A stretch of DNA of 64,000 nt from Escherichia coli (lineage in GTDB: Bacteria; Pseudomonadota; Gammaproteobacteria; Enterobacterales; Enterobacteriaceae), in the NCBI RefSeq assembly GCF_001677475.2, contig NZ_CP015229.1; one strand, written 5' to 3'. Below, piece after piece: positions 45,454 through 45,530 of the stretch; the first letter of the stretch is position 1, and every line of letters starts with the position of its first letter. The notes beneath the pieces are model-generated. The model had not been told where the DNA came from, searched no databases, and saw nothing but the letters and a program-made list of their open reading frames with translations. Made by a program: the position numbers and the translations under genes.

Positions 45454-45530
45454 TGGTTGCGGGGGCCGGATTTGAACCGACGACCTTCGGGTTATGAGCC
45501 CGACGAGCTACCAGGCTGCTCCACCCCGCG
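45454..45530 (-). tRNA. metY: Initiator tRNA-fMet (CAU anticodon), 77 nt, G46 variant
   Basis: Reverse complement reads CGCGGGGTGGAGCAGCCTGGTAGCTCGTCGGGCTCATAACCCGAAGGTCGTCGGTTCAAATCCGGCCCCCGCAACCA: three G-C pairs in the anticodon stem, CAU anticodon, encoded CCA end. Confidence 0.95.

Follow-up and report, generated by a model that had tools for sequence, protein, structure and literature searches.

The difference at position 46 of the initiator tRNA genes, between A in K-12 and G in other strains of E. coli, goes back to publications of 1969–1992. As described in PMC3017606, E. coli K strains contain tRNAfMet1, encoded by metZWV and carrying m7G46, and tRNAfMet2, encoded by metY and carrying A46; the same description is repeated in PMC8887418. 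In E. coli B all four initiator genes encode tRNAfMet1, as stated in PMC3017606 with reference to Mandal & RajBhandary, J Bacteriol 1992, and the difference between the K-12 and B initiator tRNAs is already published there (Mandal & RajBhandary 1992). The K-12 metZ, metW and metV genes form a tandem triplet between mltA and amiC, whereas the gene studied here is a single copy that heads a rimP-nusA-infB operon.

We have analyzed a stretch of E. coli DNA 64,000 nucleotides in length, which we call the window. The features at and around its initiator tRNA gene are as follows.

45454..45530, minus strand: metY, initiator tRNA-fMet(CAU) of the tRNAfMet1 (G46) type, 77 nt with encoded CCA (ARAGORN, Rfam, alignment)
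45484..45484, minus strand: standard position 46 of the metY tRNA, a G (C on the plus strand; A in K-12)
44795..45247, minus strand: rimP, which follows metY as the first protein-coding gene (ORF list)
43280-44767: nusA, downstream of rimP (ORF list)
40583-43255: infB, downstream of nusA (ORF list)
45265..45365, minus strand: leader of rimP, between metY and rimP, containing terminator-like hairpins (Rfam RF01770, 102 bits)
45546..45575, minus strand: TTTGCA-18-TAGAAT, a promoter-like site at a distance of 16 nt upstream from the tRNA 5' end (consensus scan; same in K-12)
45623..45652, minus strand: distal promoter-like site TTGACA-18-TATAAT, a perfect 12/12 consensus in the divergent argG-metY intergenic region (pattern match only)

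ARAGORN calls a tRNA-Met(CAT) at 45454-45530 on the minus strand, one of two tRNA genes in the window. A preliminary description of this DNA had placed metY at the same coordinates, and had proposed a covariance-model scan as a check on its boundaries; the scan gives a match to Rfam RF00005 at 45457-45530 on the minus strand, with a score of 61.4 bits (gathering score 29), E = 7e-11, and coverage of the full length of the model (1-71/71). The sequence of the gene on the minus strand is CGCGGGGTGGAGCAGCCTGGTAGCTCGTCGGGCTCATAACCCGAAGGTCGTCGGTTCAAATCCGGCCCCCGCAACCA. The variable-loop string quoted in the preliminary description is also right; since the gene is on the minus strand, a point that the description leaves unmentioned, the string is complementary and reversed with respect to the window. 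The D loop contains an insertion at 17a, so that linear nucleotide 47 of the gene is standard position 46. The variable loop, positions 44-48, reads AGGUC, and position 46 is G.

The CAU anticodon lies within a canonical cloverleaf, as found by ARAGORN, by Rfam and by inspection of the stems base by base. At the end of the acceptor stem C1 is opposed to A72, a mismatch that Infernal also marks as a non-standard pair. In bacterial initiator tRNA an unpaired 1:72 position is a determinant of formylation, and it also acts against the binding of EF-Tu. The D stem contains A11:U24, with the purine at 11 and the pyrimidine at 24, and this pair is a mark of initiator tRNA. C13, G22 and G46 are all present. 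In the anticodon stem there are three G:C pairs, G29-C41, G30-C40 and G31-C39 (29:41, 30:40 and 31:39), and the role of three such consecutive pairs in initiator tRNA is described in PMC3017606. Judged by its sequence, the tRNA at 45454-45530 shows every feature that is characteristic of initiator tRNA in bacteria.

The 70 nt upstream and the 50 nt downstream of the window gene are the same as the flanks of K-12 metY (b3171), and over 197 aligned bases the sole difference from K-12 MG1655 is at position 46, where the window has G and K-12 has A. With metZ, metW and metV of K-12 the 77-mer agrees fully (77/77, with G46 included), and with K-12 metY it agrees at 76/77. An identical 77-mer in K-12 metY, which the preliminary description had named as its refutation, is thus not found. 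The gene is therefore of the tRNAfMet1 type at the metY locus, as the preliminary description had read it, and the A46 that it had given for K-12 metY is what we find in MG1655. The same 77-mer is found in 109 of the 117 uncut metY tRNAs from species-representative genomes of the Enterobacterales among the matches listed, and this, together with the identity to metZ/W/V, excludes a chance match.

The locus itself is metY and not metZWV, since rimP-nusA-infB lies directly downstream and argG lies divergently upstream, in the same gene order as in the K-12 annotation (metY b3171, rimP-nusA-infB). K-12 metY is thus the orthologous gene, and shares the promoter-like sites, the rimP leader and the genes that follow it. 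The rimP ORF as listed extends to 45259 from an upstream TTG, and the product of K-12 length (150 aa) starts at about 45247. Within the leader there are pattern matches to terminator-like hairpins at 45332-45309 and 45284-45272, in sequence that is the same in K-12, and it is in this interval between metY and rimP that the metY-rimP-nusA-infB operon is attenuated. Both promoter-like sites resemble those of sigma-70, and the one at 45546..45575 we take to be P0, the proximal promoter of metY, from the K-12 operon.

The identity with metZ/W/V could also be explained if the window gene were a copy of the metZWV type that had been relocated by a rearrangement, and a close relative does contain rearrangements with breakpoints in initiator tRNA genes (see below). 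However, both flanks are those of metY, argG and rimP-nusA-infB lie in their expected positions on the two sides, and the stretch of the window between 19730 and 57668 is collinear with K-12. Moreover ARAGORN finds a single initiator tRNA gene here, as against three in tandem at metZWV. A relocated copy is refuted by flanks that are collinear with those of K-12 metY, and we regard its probability as negligible.

We then have the question of how widespread G46 is at this locus within E. coli. The query was an 87-mer comprising nucleotides 21-77 of the tRNA followed by 30 nt of the metY-specific 3' flank, and it found a match in 5425 complete E. coli genomes, which form the sample. A single mismatch in the 87-mer reduces the identity to below 99%, so that genomes matching at 99% or above are exact matches. 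The version with G46 found in the window is matched exactly in 4698 of the 5425 genomes. A further 312 contain G46 together with a C-to-T change 15 nt past the end of the tRNA, and this class includes REL606, BL21(DE3), BL21, C41/C43, NEB Express, E. coli C/ATCC 8739 and HS. The K-12 version, with A46, is matched exactly in 365 genomes (6.7%), and by subtraction 50 genomes match none of the three 87-mers exactly. Thus metY carries G46 in at least 5010 of the 5425 complete genomes, i.e. at least 92.3%. One candidate for a further variant at position 46 was the B strain NEBExpress(lowRF1), which is 98.9% identical to the G46 query, but its mismatch is the flank change and not position 46.

The preliminary description had assigned G46 to E. 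coli B and to many other strains. For B this is borne out by REL606, BL21(DE3), BL21, C41/C43 and NEB Express, in agreement with the literature as quoted in PMC3017606. For the other strains it is true but understated, given a frequency of at least 92% among complete E. coli genomes. Strains of the B, C and HS group also carry the C-to-T change in the flank, 15 nt beyond the tRNA, and the window is without it; since the exact 87-mer of the window is that of the majority class of 4698 genomes, the window is not specifically B-like, and its metY is not a special B-type variant.

We examined 62 of the 365 A46 genomes by name, and 61 of them have a K-12 or laboratory label or source, including MG1655 and its derivatives, C600, J53, DH5alpha, DH1, NCM3722, RR1 and EPI300. 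The remaining one, WCHEC035053S1G0, is unlabelled. Two more A46 genomes have field labels, LD27-1 (faeces) and L9 (chicken), and could have represented a natural population with A46. Over 40 kb LD27-1 matches MG1655 at 99.998% identity and L9 at 99.993%, which places both in the K-12 lineage; a natural A46 population was therefore rejected for these two strains, which are probably laboratory recipients.

A complete E. coli genome contains 1 to 8 matches to the initiator tRNA (median 4). Among laboratory strains there are several with only 2, namely J53, ME8067, K-12 C3026 and AS19-RrmA-, and these low counts suggest loss of copies within the metZWV tandem array.

We have also sought the ancestral state of position 46 beyond E. 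coli. A 34-mer extending from the anticodon arm to the T arm was scanned in its A46 form against species-representative genomes, and an exact match was found in 0 of 100,044; such a scan is blind to any A46 tRNA with a further change in the 34-mer. As a control we used a pattern with R at position 46, extended by 7 bases into the 3' flank of metY. This gave matches, showing that the species scan works, at a minimum of 120 loci of the metY type across the Enterobacterales, and all 120 of those listed have G46. The genera include Citrobacter, Enterobacter, Klebsiella, Raoultella, Kluyvera, Pantoea, Erwinia, Rahnella, Serratia and Tatumella, among others. In 108 of the 120 listed loci rimP is located about 200 nt downstream on the same strand, from which we conclude that these are true metY orthologs.

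These data bear upon the direction of the change. In principle A46 could have been the ancestral state of metY, with G46 acquired by gene conversion from metZWV and K-12 keeping the original allele. Recombination between metY and metZWV does occur, as seen at the junction in GCA_019141265.1 described below, so that gene conversion is mechanistically plausible. But an ancestral A46 is contradicted by G46 at all 120 of the listed Enterobacterales loci and by the failure to find the A46 sequence in any species-representative genome. Among the E. coli genomes examined by name A46 was seen only in those that are labelled as K-12 or laboratory strains or are nearly identical to MG1655, plus the one unlabelled genome, and essentially every other lineage would have had to undergo conversion independently. 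Gene conversion as the source of G46 is effectively refuted by this outgroup distribution, and an ancestral A46 is very improbable.

On the distribution in the genomes scanned, we conclude that G46 is the ancestral, conserved and near-universal state of metY, and that A46 is derived and peculiar to K-12. The best reading is that the K-12 allele would have arisen by a single G-to-A transition that became fixed in the K-12 lineage. We are almost certain that the window gene is metY, present as a single copy at the head of the metY-rimP-nusA-infB operon, in its ancestral G46 form.

The preliminary description had used G46 as an independent marker that the window is not of K-12 origin. The window is indeed outside the K-12 lineage, and there is independent evidence for this. 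It is 98.3% identical to MG1655 over 38 kb, with other aligned blocks at 97.5-99.0%, compared with 99.99% for LD27-1 and L9, which are true relatives of K-12. At 11408-13704 the window contains agaW-agaE-agaF-agaA intact, of which about 2.3 kb is absent from K-12. The products correspond to the NCBIfam equivalogs AgaW, AgaE and AgaF and to a deacetylase of the NagA type, whereas the K-12 annotation gives agaW and agaA as pseudogenes, reflecting a K-12 deletion. This is an intact N-acetylgalactosamine PTS cluster that has been lost in K-12. Conversely, the 5.5 kb yraHIJK fimbrial operon, which lies between agaI and rsmI in K-12, is absent; at 19630-19730 of the window there is about 100 bp between the flanking blocks of homology. 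Lastly, 153 bp of K-12 (~3330426-3330579) between dacB and obgE are missing at 57668-57675 of the window, and are probably a small intergenic repeat element.

By comparison with these differences G46 is a weak marker, since over 92% of E. coli carry it and the sequence divergence of 1.7% is far stronger evidence. It excludes K-12 and says nothing more about lineage.

The other structured RNAs of the window are found at places like those in K-12.

548-924: rnpB (RNase P RNA)
38468-38639: SraG
38869-38983: S15 leader
40496-40566: naRNA4
49313-49399: tRNA-Leu(GAG), leuU
56052-56173: greA leader

When 25 kb of core genes (33000-57999 of the window) were compared with 5426 complete RefSeq E. coli genomes no match at 99% or above was found, the best being 98.9%. 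Draft E. coli assemblies at NCBI match at 99.7-99.99%, and the exact YhbX protein of the window is present on 44 NCBI contigs labelled as E. coli. The lineage of the window seems to be missing from the collection of complete genomes.

One of these 44 contigs has an altered structure at metY. In the draft E. coli assembly GCA_019141265.1 (contig ABBDMP010000001.1, where 13325-21626 corresponds to 45454 of the window) the sequence is 99.993% identical to the window over 45454-58854, and the last matching base is precisely that at the 3' end of the tRNA. Beyond this point the contig continues with the 3' flank of metV, followed by amiC-argA-recD-recB. The metY/metV junction rests on draft contigs, with one such place among the matches listed and one further similar case reported. 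The K-12 chromosome has metY on its minus strand and, at a distance of about 370 kb, metZWV on its plus strand. The order of sequences in the contig implies an inversion of ~370 kb by recombination of metY with metV, which are identical initiator tRNA genes in inverted orientation, and the observed junction would be the expected product of this.

One may go further, and suppose that the perfect 77-bp repeats formed by a G46 metY and the inverted metZWV genes are live substrates for recombination, and that the resulting inversions shape both the structure of the chromosome and the regulation of nusA-infB. We consider this unlikely. If such inversions did recur in natural E. coli, rimP-nusA-infB would become detached from the metY promoters and placed behind the promoter of metZWV. 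Were this true, the mismatch introduced by A46 in K-12 would slightly damp the exchange between metY and metZWV.

What would G46 contribute to the tRNA? The metY transcript of the window would yield, on processing, a tRNA of 77 nt with the same sequence as that made from metZ, metW and metV, i.e. tRNAfMet1. From the literature we would expect G46 to be methylated to m7G46 by TrmB, whose gene lies elsewhere than in the window, and N7-methylation of G46 in the mature tRNAfMet1 is described in PMC8887418 and PMC3017606. In the same way G46 in the variable loop would be expected to take part in a base triple within the core of the tRNA, C13-G22-(m7)G46; the tertiary pairing of m7G46 with C13-G22 is described in the abstract of PMC6320965. 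The tRNA should be charged with methionine, formylated by Fmt and enter the P site with IF2, an expectation based upon the literature and upon 100% identity to the characterized tRNAfMet1 of E. coli. The A46 allele of K-12 (tRNAfMet2) is unable to accept the m7 methyl group. The metZWV genes of the source strain are located beyond the window; if they conform to the usual type then the strain would make one species of initiator tRNA, as does E. coli B, whereas K-12 makes two.

To our knowledge there is no established functional difference between the G46 and A46 tRNAs, nor any phenotype attached to them, and the G46/A46 difference has the appearance of a neutral polymorphism. The presence of G46 in the metY gene studied here is ordinary and already known, and in itself matters little. 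It can be used to exclude a K-12 origin for a sequence, and for no further statement about lineage. It is the reference strain K-12 that is the outlier, and tRNAfMet2 is a peculiarity of K-12 rather than a general feature of E. coli.
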